Shown here piece after piece: positions 11,677 to 29,873 of a DNA stretch of 32,000 nucleotides. The DNA comes from Coprobacillaceae bacterium (GTDB lineage Bacteria; Bacillota_I; Bacilli_A; Erysipelotrichales; Coprobacillaceae). Each line of letters starts with the position of its first letter. The first letter of the stretch is position 1. The stretch spans positions 2,280,001 through 2,312,000 of the forward strand of contig OY780959.1 of the NCBI GenBank assembly GCA_963675915.1, in the 5' to 3' direction. The notes below the pieces were generated by a model. The model ran no database searches, was not told the DNA's origin, and saw only the letters and a list, made by a program, of their open reading frames with translations. Both the position numbers and the translations under genes were made by a program.

Positions 11677-13205
<1,529 letters not shown>

Positions 13206-13297
13206 AGGAGAACCGTTCAACCACCCCGGTTGAACAAAAACAAGAAGTGTTGTTAAGAAATTCTGTTTAGTTTTGAGTGAACTGAGATTTACTCAAA

Positions 13298-13313
13298 GAT
13301 CATTGAAAACTGG
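13298..13313 (+). promoter_or_regulatory. boxA-like element in the 16S-23S spacer; also the 5' arm of the 23S processing stem
   Basis: GATCATTGAAAACTGG. The stretch 13298-13324 is complementary to TCGATTATTATCTAGTTTTGAGTGATC downstream of 23S (~16400-16426). Confidence 0.5.
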
Positions 13314-13479
13314 ATAATAATCGAAAGATAGAAAAGAGATCGAGGAAATGAAAATTTCCAAAATTTATAACCAGATAGATTTAATTAATTAATTTATGTG
13401 GTCTTTCTAGAAAAAGTCGAAAAAAAACTAAGAAAAAACTAAACTTTTACAACAGTAAAAGTTTAATCAAACACCAATA

Positions 13480-16380
<2,901 letters not shown>

Positions 16381-16443
16381 TTGGACAAAGACAACAAAGT
16401 CGATTATTATCTAGTTTTGAGTGATCTAAGGAAAACTCGATAA

Positions 16444-16551
16444 TCTGGTAACGATGGCATGATGGACACACCTGTACCCATCTCGAACACAGAAGTTAAG
16501 CATCATAACGGCGAAGATAGTGCGTTAGCGTGACAATAGCAAGTTGCCAGT
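16444..16551 (+). rRNA. rrf: 5S ribosomal RNA (operon 1), short form of ~108 nt
   Basis: TCTGGTAACGATGGC...CACACCTGTACCCATCTCGAACACAGAAGTTAAGC...GTTGCCAGT, with the terminal helix formed by the 5' and 3' ends. Confidence 0.9.
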
Positions 16552-16559
16552 TTAGCAAG

Positions 16560-20264: not shown

Positions 20265-21793
<1,529 letters not shown>

Positions 21794-22066
21794 AGGAGAA
21801 CCGTTCAACCACCCCGGTTGAACAAAAACAAGAAGTGTTGTTAAGAAATTCTGTTTAGTTTTGAGTGAACTGAGATTTACTCAAAGATCATTGAAAACTG
21901 GATAATAATCGAAAGATAGAAAAGAGATCGAGGAAATGAAAATTTCCAAAATTTATAACCAGATAGATTTAATTAATTAATTTATGTGGTCTTTCTAGAA
22001 AAAGTCGAAAAAAACTAAGAAAAAACTAAAATTTTACAACAGTAAAAGTTTAATCAAACACCAATA

Positions 22067-24967
<2,901 letters not shown>

Positions 24968-25030
24968 TTGGACAAAGACAACAAAGTCGATTATTATCTA
25001 GTTTTGAGTGATCTAAGGAAAACTCGATAA

Positions 25031-25138
25031 TCTGGTAACGATGGCATGATGGACACACCTGTACCCATCTCGAACACAGAAGTTAAGCATCATAACGGCG
25101 AAGATAGTGCGTTAGCGTGACAATAGCAAGTTGCCAGT
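25031..25138 (+). rRNA. rrf: 5S ribosomal RNA (operon 2)
   Basis: Identical to 16444-16551. Confidence 0.9.
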
Positions 25139-25146
25139 TTAGCAAG

Positions 25147-26278: not shown

Positions 26279-26307
26279 AAAAGCATTTGGCGTTTAGTCA
26301 AATGCTT
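26279..26307. terminator. Bidirectional hairpin between the convergent genes
   Basis: 10-bp stem AAAGCATTTG / CAAATGCTTT with a 9-nt loop. It overlaps the last codons of the minus-strand gene. The A-run on its left side gives a U-tail for the minus-strand transcript. Confidence 0.55.
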
Positions 26308-26908
26308 TGTTGTCTTTATCATATTGTTGTTTTAAATCCAATGCTTTAATTTTGCAGATACCCTGAGTCATTGTACCGATCGGGCAATAAACGCACCAGG
26401 TCCGGGGTTTGAAGAAGGCCATCGTGATCAACCCGAGTAGGGTGGAAGTAAGCATAAGCGAATAAAGCCCATACGCGAATTGGGTTACCCAAGGGAGCGT
26501 GTTGTGGTAGTTGAATGTAAACGGGATTTTCATGGTCCAGAATAGGGTGATTACAGTTTTAAGGGAAGTGGTATCTTTGAATACCAGATATGTCAGAATA
26601 AGCATGTTGGCGAACATTGCCAGGAAGAATACCAGGAAACCATAACGGAAGACGTTGCTTCGAAGGGAACTTGGACATTCGTTATTTTTAGACAGCTTAA
26701 GTTTTTTTCCAAGGATATCCAATAACTGACCTCTACCGCAATATTTTCCACAGTATGATTTTGAGCCTGATTTGATAGCGATGATCAAAGGGACGAACAT
26801 ACAGATCAGGCCAAGCCAGGCAAAAATGATATTGAAAAATCCGAGGATAAAATATGTTATTGTGGCTATCCACATATAGTCATACCAATTTTTCTTTTTG
26901 TTTTTCAT
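26294..26908 (-). CDS. Polytopic membrane protein with two Cys motifs; NapH/Fer4_5-like 4Fe-4S-binding membrane protein
   Basis: About 5 hydrophobic segments. Motifs YCGKYCGRG and WCVYCPIG (CxxCP) are typical of membrane-bound 4Fe-4S-binding proteins. The start overlaps the ferredoxin stop (TAATG), which suggests translational coupling. Confidence 0.65.
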   Translation of the reverse strand: MKNKKKNWYDYMWIATITYFILGFFNIIFAWLGLICMFVPLIIAIKSGSKSYCGKYCGRGQLLDILGKKLKLSKNNECPSSLRSNVFRYGFLVFFLAMFANMLILTYLVFKDTTSLKTVITLFWTMKIPFTFNYHNTLPWVTQFAYGLYSLMLTSTLLGLITMAFFKPRTWCVYCPIGTMTQGICKIKALDLKQQYDKDNKAFD

Positions 26909-27096
26909 TATTTGCTCACCTCGATTTCAATTACTGAAGCCGGACACTCTCTTTTGCATAGTCCGCACCCGACACATTTATCCATATCAATTTGGGCATA
27001 CATCCCTCTATCTATCTTTATCGCATTGCGGGGACATACCTTGATACATGATCCGCATGCTACACATTGTTTTTGATTTATGATTGCTTTTCTCAT
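26908..27096 (-). CDS. 2x[4Fe-4S] ferredoxin (62 aa)
   Basis: CVACGSCIKVCP and CVGCGLCKRECP motifs. RBS GAGGAGGG. Confidence 0.9.
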   Translation of the reverse strand: MRKAIINQKQCVACGSCIKVCPRNAIKIDRGMYAQIDMDKCVGCGLCKRECPASVIEIEVSK

Positions 27097-27145
27097 AGTT
27101 CCCTCCTCATTTACTTGCTAGTATATCTAAGTGTTGAGGGCTTGT

Positions 27146-27162
27146 ATGTGATAAAGTTACAT
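27146..27162. promoter_or_regulatory. Candidate Crp/Fnr-type operator overlapping a weak -35 of the ferredoxin operon
   Basis: ATGTGATAAAGTTACAT (TGTGA-N5-TTACA, 5 of 8 symmetric pairs). On the minus strand the downstream promoter is CATACA (27148-27143), 17-nt spacer, TATACT (27125-27120). This places the palindrome centre about 41 nt upstream of the predicted start. Confidence 0.3.
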
Positions 27163-27224
27163 AAAACGGGACGATATTCCAGTTTTGAAAAATACTTTCA
27201 AATTATGTCCAAACTAGTATAATG

Positions 27225-27253
27225 TTAATAATAGACAAACTATTAGATGTCAA
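27225..27253 (-). promoter_or_regulatory. Consensus -35 promoter reading toward the ferredoxin operon, at or near the downstream edge of the IS110-family element
   Basis: Minus strand: TTGACA (27253-27248), 17-nt spacer, TATTAA (27230-27225). Confidence 0.45.
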
Positions 27254-27301
27254 GAAGTAACTAAGTGAATATTCATTTAGGTTTTTTTGACAATTAATGG
27301 C

Positions 27302-27323
27302 CGTTTGGCTTGGTTTAGAGGTG
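27302..27323. repeat. 22-bp inverted repeat, arm 1 (3' non-coding side of the IS110-family gene)
   Basis: CGTTTGGCTTGGTTTAGAGGTG is the reverse complement of 28856-28877 with one mismatch. It also overlaps a local hairpin TAGAGG-TGAAT-CCTCTA. Confidence 0.9.
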
Positions 27324-27437
27324 AATCCTCTATAAAAATCTTGTTTTTGGATAAATTTGAGCGCACTGAAAACAACCTGCCAGATTTTAATCACTGGAAG
27401 CTCTTACATTTAATGATTCCTTATAGATTAGGCTCGC

Positions 27438-28817
27438 TTATGTTGTATAGATGAATTTATGGACTTCTCCATTTTCATCACTGTAACGATAGATTTGCCT
27501 TCTGGTCTTTAGGGGAATATGAGTAGTAATACTTTGGAAGAACGTATTTCGGGTTTCTTCCGGTAATCTCATGAGATGATCATGTTCGATTACAAATTTG
27601 CTTTGCTTCTTCATCATGGAATATATATAACGGGCAACTTTATTGGCTACTGCCACAACTGCCAATCGATGGCGTTTTTTGTTCCCGTTCTTGATCTTTT
27701 CGAAATATGCCTTGAGGACTGGATTGTGTCTTCTGGCAAATTCTCCAATCATATATATGGCATGACGAAGATATCTTGAACCTTTTTTTGAAATCTTGCC
27801 CATGATTTCAACTGAACTGCCGGAGCGCTTGTTTCTTGGGGCGAGCCCCATGTAAGAAACATATTTGTCAGCGTTTTTGAAAAGTTTGATGTCATATGTT
27901 TCGGCAATTACTGTTGCCGCTGTTACATCACCGCATCCTGTCAAAGTCTGCAGTTTATCAAACATCGGATTAGTTGAACCTAGTTCTCTAATCATCTTTT
28001 CAAGAGTTTTTATTTGTCGCTTCATATCAATGACGACTGCCGCCTGGCCCTGGATTATGGATCTGATTGACTCAGATACTTTGCGTGGAGCAAGCGAATC
28101 AAGACAAAGGTCAAACAGCTTATCTACCTTATCTGATTTGGTCCTGTTTTTCGATGCTTTTAAAACAATATCTAATACTTCTATTCTTGAAGCGTTTATG
28201 ATATCATGTGTCGTAGGATATGAAGATAAGATAGCAAGAAATGTTGCTGACTTAGGTTCGAAGACATATTGAAGTTCAGGGAAATAACGTTCGCATTGGG
28301 CAATGAGGCGGTTAATTTCTTGAGTATAAGTTTTCTTTACCTGGCCATGGCGATGCACTACTGCTTTCAAATCTGCATATCCTTTTTCATTATTTATGTT
28401 GTTTTTGTGAACATATTTAACGTCATATTCATATGCGACTATTGAAGCAATTGTCTGGGCATCCAGTGGATCAGACTTACCGATATCATGAGATTCACGC
28501 CATTTATTGACATATTGGGTGTTAAGTAGATATACATCCTCAATGTCGTTTAAAGATGAATGGATGAACTCGAAGATATTGTCGGAATAAACACCAGTGA
28601 CTTCCATTGCATAAGTCACATGGTTGCAATCTGAATCAATGTATTTTCTGACAGTGGCCAGGAAATCATTCAATTCGGATTTCAAAAACTTAAATTGAAT
28701 TCTTTTTCTCAAGAATTTAGGCTTGATATTTCTATCACGATTGACAGAAATAATAGCAGCATCGGCCTTGCCTTTAGAGACATCGATACCAACGAATAAT
28801 TCATAACTGTTATTCAT
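27438..28817 (-). CDS. IS110-family transposase/recombinase (DEDD RuvC-like N-domain + Transposase_20 C-domain), 459 aa
   Basis: FVGIDVSKGK (D), YAMEVTGVY (E), GKSDPLDAQ (D..D). C-domain LQTLTGCGDVTAATVIAE...YMGLAPRNKRSGSS...ISKKGSRYLRHAIY. RBS GAGGT 7 nt upstream of the ATG. Confidence 0.92.
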   Translation of the reverse strand: MNNSYELFVGIDVSKGKADAAIISVNRDRNIKPKFLRKRIQFKFLKSELNDFLATVRKYIDSDCNHVTYAMEVTGVYSDNIFEFIHSSLNDIEDVYLLNTQYVNKWRESHDIGKSDPLDAQTIASIVAYEYDVKYVHKNNINNEKGYADLKAVVHRHGQVKKTYTQEINRLIAQCERYFPELQYVFEPKSATFLAILSSYPTTHDIINASRIEVLDIVLKASKNRTKSDKVDKLFDLCLDSLAPRKVSESIRSIIQGQAAVVIDMKRQIKTLEKMIRELGSTNPMFDKLQTLTGCGDVTAATVIAETYDIKLFKNADKYVSYMGLAPRNKRSGSSVEIMGKISKKGSRYLRHAIYMIGEFARRHNPVLKAYFEKIKNGNKKRHRLAVVAVANKVARYIYSMMKKQSKFVIEHDHLMRLPEETRNTFFQSITTHIPLKTRRQIYRYSDENGEVHKFIYTT

Positions 28818-28855
28818 AAACTGAACCTCATTTCAATGTATTCTGTTTTGAATTG

Positions 28856-28877
28856 CACCTCTAAACCAAGACAAACG
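28856..28877. repeat. 22-bp inverted repeat, arm 2 (5' non-coding side of the IS110-family gene)
   Basis: CACCTCTAAACCAAGACAAACG, beginning 39 nt upstream of the recombinase ATG. Confidence 0.9.
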
Positions 28878-29120
28878 CAACCTCGTAAATGGGGAGACGA
28901 AGTGAAACCACAACGCTGCATCAAACTAATTCGGGTATAAAGACTGCTTGGATCAAGGATTAAGTCTACGCAAGGTGGACATCATGTGAGCCACAGGGAG
29001 GAGGAATAAAACCTTCATTCAAAACAAGTCTATTATCTTAGAAAAAGGATACTAATGCAATTCTTAAGTGAATCAATATTAATTAAGGATTACAAACATA
29101 TTATACGAGGGGGGATTACA

Positions 29121-29873
29121 ATGAAAGCAGTATTTTTTGATATTGATGGGACGCTGGTCAGTCATGGAGACCGGATCATGCCCGAAAGTACCAAATTGGC
29201 TTTGAAAAAGTTGAAAGAACAGAACATCATGGTGTTCATCGCTACGGGGCGGCCGCACAGTTCGGCGGTTTTCATGAATGAATATTTCGAATTCGATGGT
29301 TATGTATGCAATAACGGCACGAATGGAGTGTTCAGGTGTCAGCAGATTATTGACATTCAGATACCTAATGAATCACTGGAAGTCATGATTGAATATGTGC
29401 GCTCGAAAAAACTTAAAGTGGGGATTTCGACTGATGTTGAAGTCTATTATGGCGGAGTTGACGGAGTTTTATACGATGACAATATGCCCGTCCGACCGAT
29501 TGAGCAGTGTCTTGATGACAAGATATATCAGGTGAATCTATATGCGCCACCAGAAGCGGATGATGAATTCCTTCATCATTTGCCCAATAGCAAGTCAGTC
29601 CGGTGGACTGACCGCTTTGCCGATATCATCTCGGTTGAAGGTGGTAAGGAAGTGGGAATCCGCAAGTTCTTGGGACTGTTGGGAATCGAGGAAAGCGAAA
29701 TCGCCGTTTTTGGCGATGGCGAAAACGACCTGACGATGCTTAAAGCCTTCAAAAATTCGGTGGCCATGGGAAATGCTAATGATATCGTCAAGGAGAATGC
29801 CAGCTTTGTGACTGACCACATTCTTGAAGATGGGATCTACAATGCCTTGAAGAAATTCAAAGTAATCGAATAA
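29121..29873 (+). CDS. Cof-type HAD-IIB family hydrolase (sugar-phosphate phosphatase-like)
   Basis: MKAVFFDIDGTL (motif I), IATGR (motif II), GDGENDLTM (motif IV). G-rich RBS GAGGGGGG before the ATG at 29121. The track start at 29055 has no RBS. Confidence 0.88.
   Translation: MKAVFFDIDGTLVSHGDRIMPESTKLALKKLKEQNIMVFIATGRPHSSAVFMNEYFEFDGYVCNNGTNGVFRCQQIIDIQIPNESLEVMIEYVRSKKLKVGISTDVEVYYGGVDGVLYDDNMPVRPIEQCLDDKIYQVNLYAPPEADDEFLHHLPNSKSVRWTDRFADIISVEGGKEVGIRKFLGLLGIEESEIAVFGDGENDLTMLKAFKNSVAMGNANDIVKENASFVTDHILEDGIYNALKKFKVIE

Follow-up and report, generated by a model that had tools for sequence, protein, structure and literature searches.

An IS110-subgroup insertion sequence of a gut Coprobacillaceae bacterium with a predicted bridge RNA, Shine-Dalgarno target sites and a covarying helix between its ends

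Insertion sequences of the IS110 family are characterized by a recombinase with a DEDD domain and a C-terminal transposase domain containing a conserved serine, and bridge RNAs have been predicted for most of these elements (PMC11208160). In the Escherichia coli element IS621 (Durrant et al. 2024, PMC11208160; Hiraizumi et al. 2024/2026, PMC11208158, PMC13626964), the bridge RNA is encoded in the left end (LE) and comprises a 5' stem-loop, a target loop in which a left and a right target guide (LTG and RTG) flank a hairpin, and a donor loop in which a left and a right donor guide (LDG and RDG) flank another. The IS621 LTG corresponds to the top strand of the left target and core, and the RTG to the reverse complement of the core and right target (PMC11208160). 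Elements of the IS1111 subgroup instead encode their RNA, a seekRNA, in the right end (RE), and inverted repeats of 7-17 bp are found sub-terminally in them (Siddiquee et al. 2024, PMC11187229). Here, we describe an element located in a 32,000-nucleotide stretch of a Coprobacillaceae genome (assembly GCA_963675915.1, contig OY780959.1, positions 2,280,001 to 2,312,000), hereafter termed the window. Judged from its sequence and that of its relatives, the segment 29109..27233 on the minus strand of the window is very probably an intact IS110-subgroup insertion sequence that works like IS621. As bridge RNAs are predicted for most IS110 elements, this kind of element is already known; a helix joining its two ends and a target guide resembling the anti-Shine-Dalgarno sequence set it above a routine member of the family.

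A preliminary description of the locus, made from the sequence alone, had proposed an IS110 recombinase with a complete catalytic signature, flanked by long regions devoid of credible open reading frames (ORFs) that could encode a bridge RNA. The signature is borne out by domain searches. Pfam DEDD_Tnp_IS110 (PF01548) matches residues 9-180 of the recombinase (E 3e-16) and Transposase_20 (PF02371) residues 288-372 (E 6e-23), both above cut-off, and the protein scores 193 bits with NCBIfam NF033542, 'IS110 family RNA-guided transposase', for which the cut-off is 140. An alignment of 25 relatives shows no variation at D12, E72, D116, D119 or S332, and both defining domains of the family, including the conserved serine, are thus present. 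The nearest solved homologues are the recombinases of ISCro4 and IS621, and one protein cluster of relatives contains 2619 member sequences; at E below 1e-10 the family comprises 260 protein clusters and thousands of sequences. The flanks are likewise devoid of credible ORFs in the ORF list of the window. Residues 258-415 (window 27573..28046) also give a sub-threshold match to NF052498, a TIGR-Tas RNA-guided endonuclease family (35 bits against a cut-off of 100); TIGR-Tas systems have reportedly been connected with IS110.

Related loci, designated by L numbers, were drawn from a Coprobacillaceae metagenome-assembled genome (L001, 88% protein identity), from exact look-ups of related proteins, and from a metagenome scan (66 loci); exact look-ups of P0121 and of the HAD-family protein encoded next to the element, with either start, returned no match. 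The termini CT|CGTATAATATG ... TTGACATNTAATAGTTTGT|CT are near-invariant among about 50 independent insertions with protein identities of 45-100%, and the sequence beyond them varies from site to site. A near-identical genome (L096), reached via the neighboring ferredoxin gene, has both neighboring genes adjacent to each other and an empty site, CATTGTAATCCCCC-CT-ATTATTAACATTATAC, which is exactly the two window flanks joined by a single CT. The conserved termini and this site together define the element as 29107..27233 plus the CT at 29109..29108, the second CT lying at 27234..27233. A core dinucleotide is therefore found on both sides, with target duplication limited to that core, as expected of the IS110 subgroup. 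Measured from the coding sequence, the LE is 290 nt and the RE 205 nt long. The comparison of copies that the preliminary description had called for thus yielded exact ends and the core, and it corrects the interval given there (27228-29037), which overshot the RE by 5 nt and fell 72 nt short on the LE side. By ending the 5' flank early, at about 220 nt, that description missed the -10 box and most of the first stem-loop. Its caveat that the ends might lie immediately beside the coding sequence does not hold at these distances.

The left junctions of four loci (L083, L085, L087 and L088) read ...GTCCCTCCT-CT-CGTATAAT, one CT more than the guide (GUCCUCCUU), which suggests either slippage in CCT repeats or a duplicated core. 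One insertion of a P0101 element (L085:2830-2870) carries a tandem duplication of the RE terminus (AATAGTTTGTCT AATAGTTTGTCT).

The strongest evidence for a bridge RNA comes from the relationship between LE sequences and insertion sites. Thirty-two distinct LEs align well except in the first stem-loop and in two short hypervariable blocks, which flank a conserved hairpin, GYGGC...GYCCRC. Read by the IS621 rules, the first block is the LTG, in the same sense as the left target and core, and the second the RTG, the reverse complement of the core and right target. Guides were shuffled among 43 unique sites bearing 18 guide types. The LTG matched its own left flank at 6.95 of 9 positions, compared with 5.67 after shuffling, and the RTG matched the reverse complement of CT plus the right target at 4.74 of 7 positions, compared with 4.28; none of 10000 permutations reached the observed value in either case. 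RTG matches are exemplified by GCAGAG with CTCTGC (L001) and UUAAG with CTTAAT (L032). Near-identical elements are especially informative. The LEs of the window copy and L002, of L001, and of L079 belong to the two closest protein clusters (88% identical) and are nearly the same outside the guides, and their LTGs differ, each fitting its own flank: CCUCCUCCCU in the window copy and L002, with ATCCCCC-CT on the left of the window element (7/9); GUUCACCU in L001, with TTCAC-CT; and UUUCUCCU in L079, with TTTCTC-CT. The RTG differs only in the window copy and L002 (GCGUAG, of which only CTA is matched at the window site); L001 and L079 both carry GCAGAG, which faces CT-CTGC in L001, and the L079 contig stops at the core on the right. 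The window target reads AATCCCCC-CT-ATTATT (in full AATCCCCCCTATTATT), and a version fitting the guides perfectly would be CCTCCTCCCTACGCAAG. A fixed LTG register with a TT core, considered for guides of the CTCCTT type, was rejected as incompatible with the junction sequences.

Donor guides can be recognized further downstream in the LE by the same logic. The LDG segment UUAGUUUGU equals the RE terminus TAGTTTGT, the matching part being UAGUUUG(U), and where distant relatives have an RE ending in TAGTTAGG-CT, their LDG reads AAGUUAGUU (AGUUAG). The LDG thus follows the RE terminus, with TTTGT in the family of the window element and TTAGG in the distant relatives. The RDG occurs as UACGAG or UGCGAG, within a segment UUU(A/G)CGAG, and matches the LE tip CTCGTA as its reverse complement. 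The corresponding donor junction is ...TAGTTTGT-CT-CGTATAAT..., or, with more of each end, TAATAGTTTGT-CT-CGTATAATATG; the full donor sequence is TAATAGTTTGTCTCGTATAATATG. Segments tracking target and donor, together with all the conserved bridge-RNA helices, hence lie in the 290-nt LE, and the predicted RNA has the sense of the recombinase. The preliminary description had left undecided which flank would encode the guide RNA; covariation of LE segments with both target flanks and the donor end, the very comparison it had suggested, places the guides in the 5' flank, as in the IS110 subgroup, and upholds its proposal of a bridge-RNA-guided element.

Comparison between copies also supports a defined RNA architecture. 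The segment preceding the loops forms one long hairpin (SL1) in 17/17 LE variants tested, although the sequences are unrelated and range from 43 to 122 nt. A 9-pair helix closing both loops is paired in 94.8% of cells and shows one compensatory change, from U-A to C-G. Pairing in the basal and distal helices of the target loop amounts to 91-100%, and pairs 35/88 and 51/72 have changed in a compensatory manner. For the closing, basal and distal helices combined, the figure is 94.7%, with covariation at 3 pairs, against 29-63% in slid controls. The inner stem of the distal hairpin in the donor loop, read by eye, varies between subfamilies yet stays paired (AGUG/CACU, CUGAU/AUCAG, GGAU/AUCC). The connector between the loops, at 28939..28960 of the window (minus strand) and at the equivalent place in the LEs of relatives, has two forms, one the reverse complement of the other: (C/T)CAAG in the window, L032 and L033, which can pair with CUUG(G/A) in a downstream segment, termed b below, and CUUGAC(A) in L003, L013 and L035, which is the RE -35 region. 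The two forms could reflect alternative pairing or an internal promoter.

Homology to IS621, whose sequence was confirmed in E. coli genomes, provides an independent line of evidence. The RDG region of most relatives, CCGUAUUUGCGAGGUUG, differs from that of IS621, CCGUAUUUGCAAGGUUG, at 1/17 positions, and this sole difference tracks the donor, which is CTTGT in IS621 and CTCGT in the family of the window element; the window copy itself (CCCAUUUACGAGGUUG) shows a few further differences. Between IS621 and most relatives, the donor loop is almost identical in its 3' part (CCGUAUUUGC[G/A]AGGUUG). Both elements have a DEDD/Ser recombinase, a CT core at both boundaries (described for IS621 in PMC13626964), the same order of stem-loop, LTG-hairpin-RTG and LDG-hairpin-RDG in an LE-encoded RNA, the same sense of each target guide, and a junction promoter split between a -35 box in the RE and a -10 box in the LE. 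They differ in size: the recombinase has 459 aa in the window and 326 in IS621, with only the C-terminal half aligning well, the LE 290 nt rather than about 190, and the RE 205 nt rather than about 105. Unlike IS621, the window element has a 9-bp helix that closes both loops and an LDG that leaves the core unpaired, and its target is a Shine-Dalgarno site rather than a repetitive extragenic palindromic (REP) element.

The split promoter becomes apparent when the ends are joined in silico. The simulated RE-LE junction reads TTGACA-TCTAATAGTTTGTCTCG-TATAAT, with a 17-nt spacer, and both hexamers are invariant among the copies. A promoter scan of the integrated copy gave no -35 partner for the LE TATAAT. 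This contrast between integrated and circular forms fits the picture described for IS621, in which expression would be weak from the integrated element and strong from the circle. No circle-junction sequence was present among 79 loci.

These features can be combined into a working model. Circularization would assemble a perfect TTGACA-N17-TATAAT promoter that drives bridge RNA and recombinase alike. The LE would be transcribed into a bridge RNA of approximately 230-250 nt in which the 5' stem-loop is followed by a target loop (LTG CCUCCUCCCU, hairpin, RTG CUUGCGUAG) and a donor loop (LDG UUAGUUUG, hairpin, RDG UUUACGAG). Transcription, the RNA ends, recombination activity and the role of the helix between the element ends are what we infer.

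Several observations weigh against this interpretation. The window site fits its own guides imperfectly, with 7/9 positions on the left and only CTA on the right, and L002, the identical copy, needs a 3-nt shift in register to fit its left target; the distance from LTG to hairpin varies by 1 nt among subfamilies. The LDG stops short of the CT core, with UG or UU at those positions, and in the subfamily of the window element it has an A where the donor has T. The donor loop's basal stem is poorly delimited, and so is the 3' end of the RNA. Folding of the flanks as single sequences, proposed in the preliminary description, was uninformative: the LE fold equals that of shuffled sequences (z = 0.01), and the RE gives z = -1.62. 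RNAalifold recovered the LE structure only in part, one run pairing the guide itself, and a brute-force helix search in the LE was swamped by G·U pairs in invariant columns. Since the LE fold is no better than shuffles, the structural case rests on the comparison between copies. Rfam 15, which does not include the published bridge-RNA covariance models, was run on the whole window at the gathering threshold and on 27000..29200 at E up to 10 and gave no match on the flanks, its matches in the window being the rRNAs and two chance matches inside the recombinase coding sequence; support for the bridge RNA accordingly consists of covariation and homology to the IS621 RNA. The stems AGACT/AGTCT and CTTG/CAAG that had earlier been picked out in the 5' flank do occur in the window, but they do not define the structure, for AGACT lies in an invariant LE segment and the partner sequences are not kept in other subfamilies.

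Table 1. Features of the insertion sequence and its target in the window
Feature	Position	Strand	Basis
Whole insertion sequence, 1875 bp counting one CT core	27233..29109	-	about 50 independent insertions and empty site
Recombinase gene, 459 aa, DEDD RuvC-like and Ser Tnp domains	27438..28817	-	ORF list, Pfam, NCBIfam
TATAAT -10 box at LE tip	29100..29105	-	sequence; partner of RE -35 box in circle
5' stem-loop (SL1) of predicted bridge RNA	29056..29094	-	fold of 17 LE variants
Closing helix, 5' strand (GUUUUGAAU), pairs with 28853..28845	29017..29025	-	comparative pairing
Target-binding loop: basal stem AAGG/CCUU and UUA/UAA, two guides, distal hairpin 28994..28975	28955..29015	-	comparative pairing
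Left target guide (LTG) CCUCCUCCCU, same sense as left target and core	28995..29004	-	hypervariable LE block
Right target guide (RTG) CUUGCGUAG, reverse complement of core and right target	28966..28974	-	second variable block
Left donor guide (LDG) UUAGUUUGAUG, matches RE terminus TAGTTTGT	28919..28929	-	LE alignment
Distal hairpin of donor-binding loop	28894..28918	-	inner stem read by eye, uncounted
Right donor guide (RDG) CAUUUACGAG	28882..28891	-	UACGAG is the reverse complement of LE tip CTCGTA
Segment b, 3' part of bridge-RNA region and recombinase 5' untranslated region, pairs with c	28852..28877	-	
RE hairpins H1 (27400..27377) and H2 (27375..27341), each followed by a U-rich run	27341..27400	-	RE alignment
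RE hairpin H3 (UAGAGG..CCUCUA), 3' arm is start of segment c	27316..27332	-	78% paired
Segment c in RE (recombinase 3' untranslated region), complementary to b	27302..27326	-	
TTGACA -35 box at RE tip	27248..27253	-	invariant in all copies
Left donor (RE terminus) TAATAGTTTGT	27235..27245	-	RE alignment of relatives
Target remnant on LE side: Shine-Dalgarno GAGGGGGG and ATG 29121 of HAD-family hydrolase	29110..29123	+	
HAD-family hydrolase gene (hit gene)	29121..29873	+	start ATG 29121

The sites occupied by this family share a clear signature. Of 50 unique left flanks, 42 have CAT, the complement of ATG, at a distance of 9-13 nt 5' of the core, and the 7 nt preceding the core average 5.8/7 pyrimidines in the same flanks. 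Read on the opposite strand, the target is ...AA-AG-GAGG...N7-ATG, a Shine-Dalgarno (SD) sequence with the core inside it or at its 5' edge. The LTG corresponds to the pyrimidine-rich, anti-SD strand and thus resembles the anti-SD of 16S rRNA, and a guide of this kind leads the family to insert at the 5' edge of ribosome-binding sites (RBSs), always divergently from the gene that is hit. Such an insertion spares the SD and start codon and would separate the gene from its promoter. The HAD-family hydrolase gene in the window is a case in point: it keeps GAGGGGGG-N7-ATG after insertion, the SD being completed by the core and the first base of the insertion sequence, and the sequence formerly upstream of it has been displaced by 1.9 kb to the far side of the RE. 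This displaced sequence contains a TATAAT at about 27219..27224 (plus strand) and probably held the promoter of the gene. A 272-aa ORF called from 29055 is an over-extension through the LE tip, and its counterpart in L096 is called as 250 aa from the ATG corresponding to 29121. Neither a promoter scan nor inspection of the LE alignment revealed a conserved outward LE promoter for the hit gene.

A similar target preference is known from the IS900 group, whose target consensus is CATGN4-6*CNCCTT. The insertion point of IS900 is between the RBS and the start codon, both of which it is proposed to borrow for an antisense ORF (hed). The mycobacterial elements IS900, IS901, IS902 and IS1110, all of the IS110 family, are reported to insert at translation-initiation signals (Doran et al. 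1997, cited in PMC8141618). The window element likewise takes a host gene's RBS and start codon as its oriented target; in contrast to IS900, it enters at the 5' edge of the SD, leaving SD and ATG to the host gene and feeding no antisense ORF.

Two apparent derivatives of LE sequences involve the guides themselves. Four metagenome contigs (L058, L059, L062 and L067), whose protein matches cover only the first ~270-280 residues, derive from the L066 insertion (compare L066:1160-1330) by a deletion between the left flank (ATCTCTCCT) and the LTG (CTCTCTCCTT) that takes away the first ~120 nt of the LE, seemingly through recombination across the 9-bp direct repeat formed by the target and its RNA-guide copy. 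An IS621 copy in E. coli NZ_CP024240 (L080:1590-1740) has the 5' part of its LE tandemly duplicated, the second unit starting directly after the LTG (...GTATCGGGCCT|TGTATTATCCC...), where the guide seems to have acted as a target-like site for the LE of the element itself.

A second conserved feature links the two ends of the element. Segment b, located just 3' of the RDG, is complementary to segment c of the RE over 22-26 nt. The b-c helix has 25 pairs, of which 92.4% of cells are paired across 19 distinct b/c combinations, and 6 pairs show compensatory change; slid controls reach 34-51%, and 0/500 shuffles attain the observed score. Relatives with 45-54% protein identity retain 20/20 pairs. 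Sequence changes that keep pairing lead, for example, from GAUUUAGAGG/CCUCUAAAUC to GAUAGAGAGG/CCUUUCUAUC or GGCUUAGAGG/UCUCUAAGCC. When complementarity was scored ungapped and locally (RNAduplex over the full ends, which allows large loops, was discarded), b-c was the best match between LE and RE in each of 6 diverged copies, with 0/300 shuffles as good in each. IS621 has only weak complementarity of this sort, in a different place (8/300 shuffles). Two other assignments were considered and rejected. Segment b contains GCGUUUGUCUUG, equal to the RE terminus and core, and could be taken for the left donor guide, but relatives with another terminus keep b and change the upstream segment. A pairing of segment c with the RE terminus, suggested by RNAalifold, was set aside on the same grounds.

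The RE also contains the three consecutive hairpins noted in the preliminary description (H1-H3). They are conserved in 27 relatives, where 85% of their cells are paired and every hairpin has covarying pairs, H1 three of them. One pair of H2 is C-G in 16 copies and G-C in 7, and H3 is weaker. Inspection of the RE alignment disclosed no segment that tracks targets or flanks, and the hairpins are thus conserved without being guides. The 5' arm of H3 is the same sequence as UAGAGG in b, and its 3' arm is the start of c, making H3 and the b-c helix alternative pairings. H1 and H2 may act as terminators, given that U-rich runs (UUGUUUU and AUUUUUAU) follow them just past the stop codon. It is nevertheless unlikely that the RE structures are only terminators or insulators of the recombinase gene and that the b-c match has no further function. 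The stems are A/U-rich, the H2 loop spans 21 nt, and a terminator scan called neither H1 nor H2; moreover, this explanation does not account for a 22-26-bp helix whose partner lies 1.5 kb upstream and which shows compensatory changes down to 45% protein identity.

A lower probability still attaches to the idea that b and c form an inverted repeat acting at the DNA level, such as a protein-binding site at both ends. Repeats of this type are common near transposon ends, and segment b resembles the RE terminus (GTTTGTCT) in this family. However, the non-Watson-Crick cells of the b-c helix are one-sided, 33 being G·U and 3 A·C on the recombinase-sense strand, which points to a constraint on sense-strand RNA rather than DNA, and six pairs change on both sides with pairing kept. 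Relatives with the TTAGG terminus keep b, and c pairs 20/20 with b and not with the terminus. The segments also lie 230 nt and 80 nt inside the ends.

The preferred reading, a helix in the sense-strand RNA, leads us to propose that b-c pairing processes or regulates the transcript carrying bridge RNA and recombinase. The two strands of the helix enclose the entire ORF, and its length would suffice for RNase III, which suggests either a processing stalk, for example an RNase III site that frees the bridge RNA in a manner analogous to the stems flanking rRNAs, or a switch, whether between bridge-RNA fold and mRNA or coupling bridge-RNA folding to completion of the transcript; we put forward these specific roles tentatively, as possibilities that are rather less than even. 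We found no description of such an LE-RE helix for IS110 elements in the open-access literature. The nearest precedent is ISPpu9 of Pseudomonas putida, whose small RNAs Asr9 and Ssr9 have been proposed to regulate recombinase expression or bridge-RNA processing (PMC8450116, PMC12288879). There, too, a sequence downstream of the recombinase is complementary to an RNA from the 5' untranslated region; the downstream Ssr9, however, pairs with an antisense RNA, Asr9, and forms an accessory module absent from many copies, whereas in the window element the sense strand of the RE pairs directly with the sense strand of the 5' untranslated region and is kept in diverged copies in which both segments are readable.

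It is highly improbable that the window copy is a fixed, inactive relic. Such a view could appeal to the presence of a single copy in the window and to the imperfect fit between the guides and their own target. The ORF is intact, however, and both ends are complete. A copy identical in protein and LE sits in another context (L002), and the same site is empty in the near-identical genome L096, from which we conclude that the element moved recently.

Least tenable of all is an IS1111-type organization with a seekRNA guide in the RE and the three hairpins as its scaffold, since, despite a shared recombinase family, an RNA with target and donor guides in both groups, a long (205 nt) RE with conserved, covarying hairpins, and the downstream position of IS1111-group RNAs (PMC11208160), the target- and donor-tracking blocks all lie in a 290-nt LE that is homologous to the IS621 bridge RNA rather than in an RE accompanied by a short LE, the variable RE parts are hairpin loops and a post-stop stretch that by inspection are unrelated to the flanks, no sub-terminal inverted repeats of 7-17 bp exist at the tips (CGTATAATATG and TAATAGTTTGT do not form an inverted repeat), and the one long stretch of LE/RE complementarity, which behaves as RNA, is set 230 nt and 80 nt inward from the ends.

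The surroundings of the element include, downstream of the RE, an operon-like pair of genes for a 62-aa 4Fe-4S ferredoxin and a 204-aa membrane protein (26294..27096, minus strand), whose upstream region (27097..27232) is untouched by the insertion. Two complete, tandem rRNA operons (16S-23S-5S, plus strand, 11677..16552 and 20265..25139) end approximately 2 kb from the element. As a rule, 16S rRNA has in its 3' tail an anti-SD of the CACCTCCTT type, which would resemble the target motif of the family; no insertion was seen in the rRNA operons of the window.

The window element is a natural bridge-RNA element from gut Erysipelotrichales for which the ends, core, four guides and target motif are defined. 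Its relatives provide dozens of natural guide variants paired with insertion sites, and thus a data set on the specificity of a recombinase whose relationship to that of IS621 is only distant. The b-c helix is a testable lead on the maturation and regulation of bridge RNAs, a point left open in PMC12288879 and PMC13626964; if its proposed role is true, it would offer a concrete answer, for one lineage, to how bridge RNA and recombinase mRNA are separated or coordinated. Because the guide mimics an anti-SD sequence, nearly every gene would be a potential site, and these insertions may bear on gene inactivation and strain variation in common human gut bacteria.

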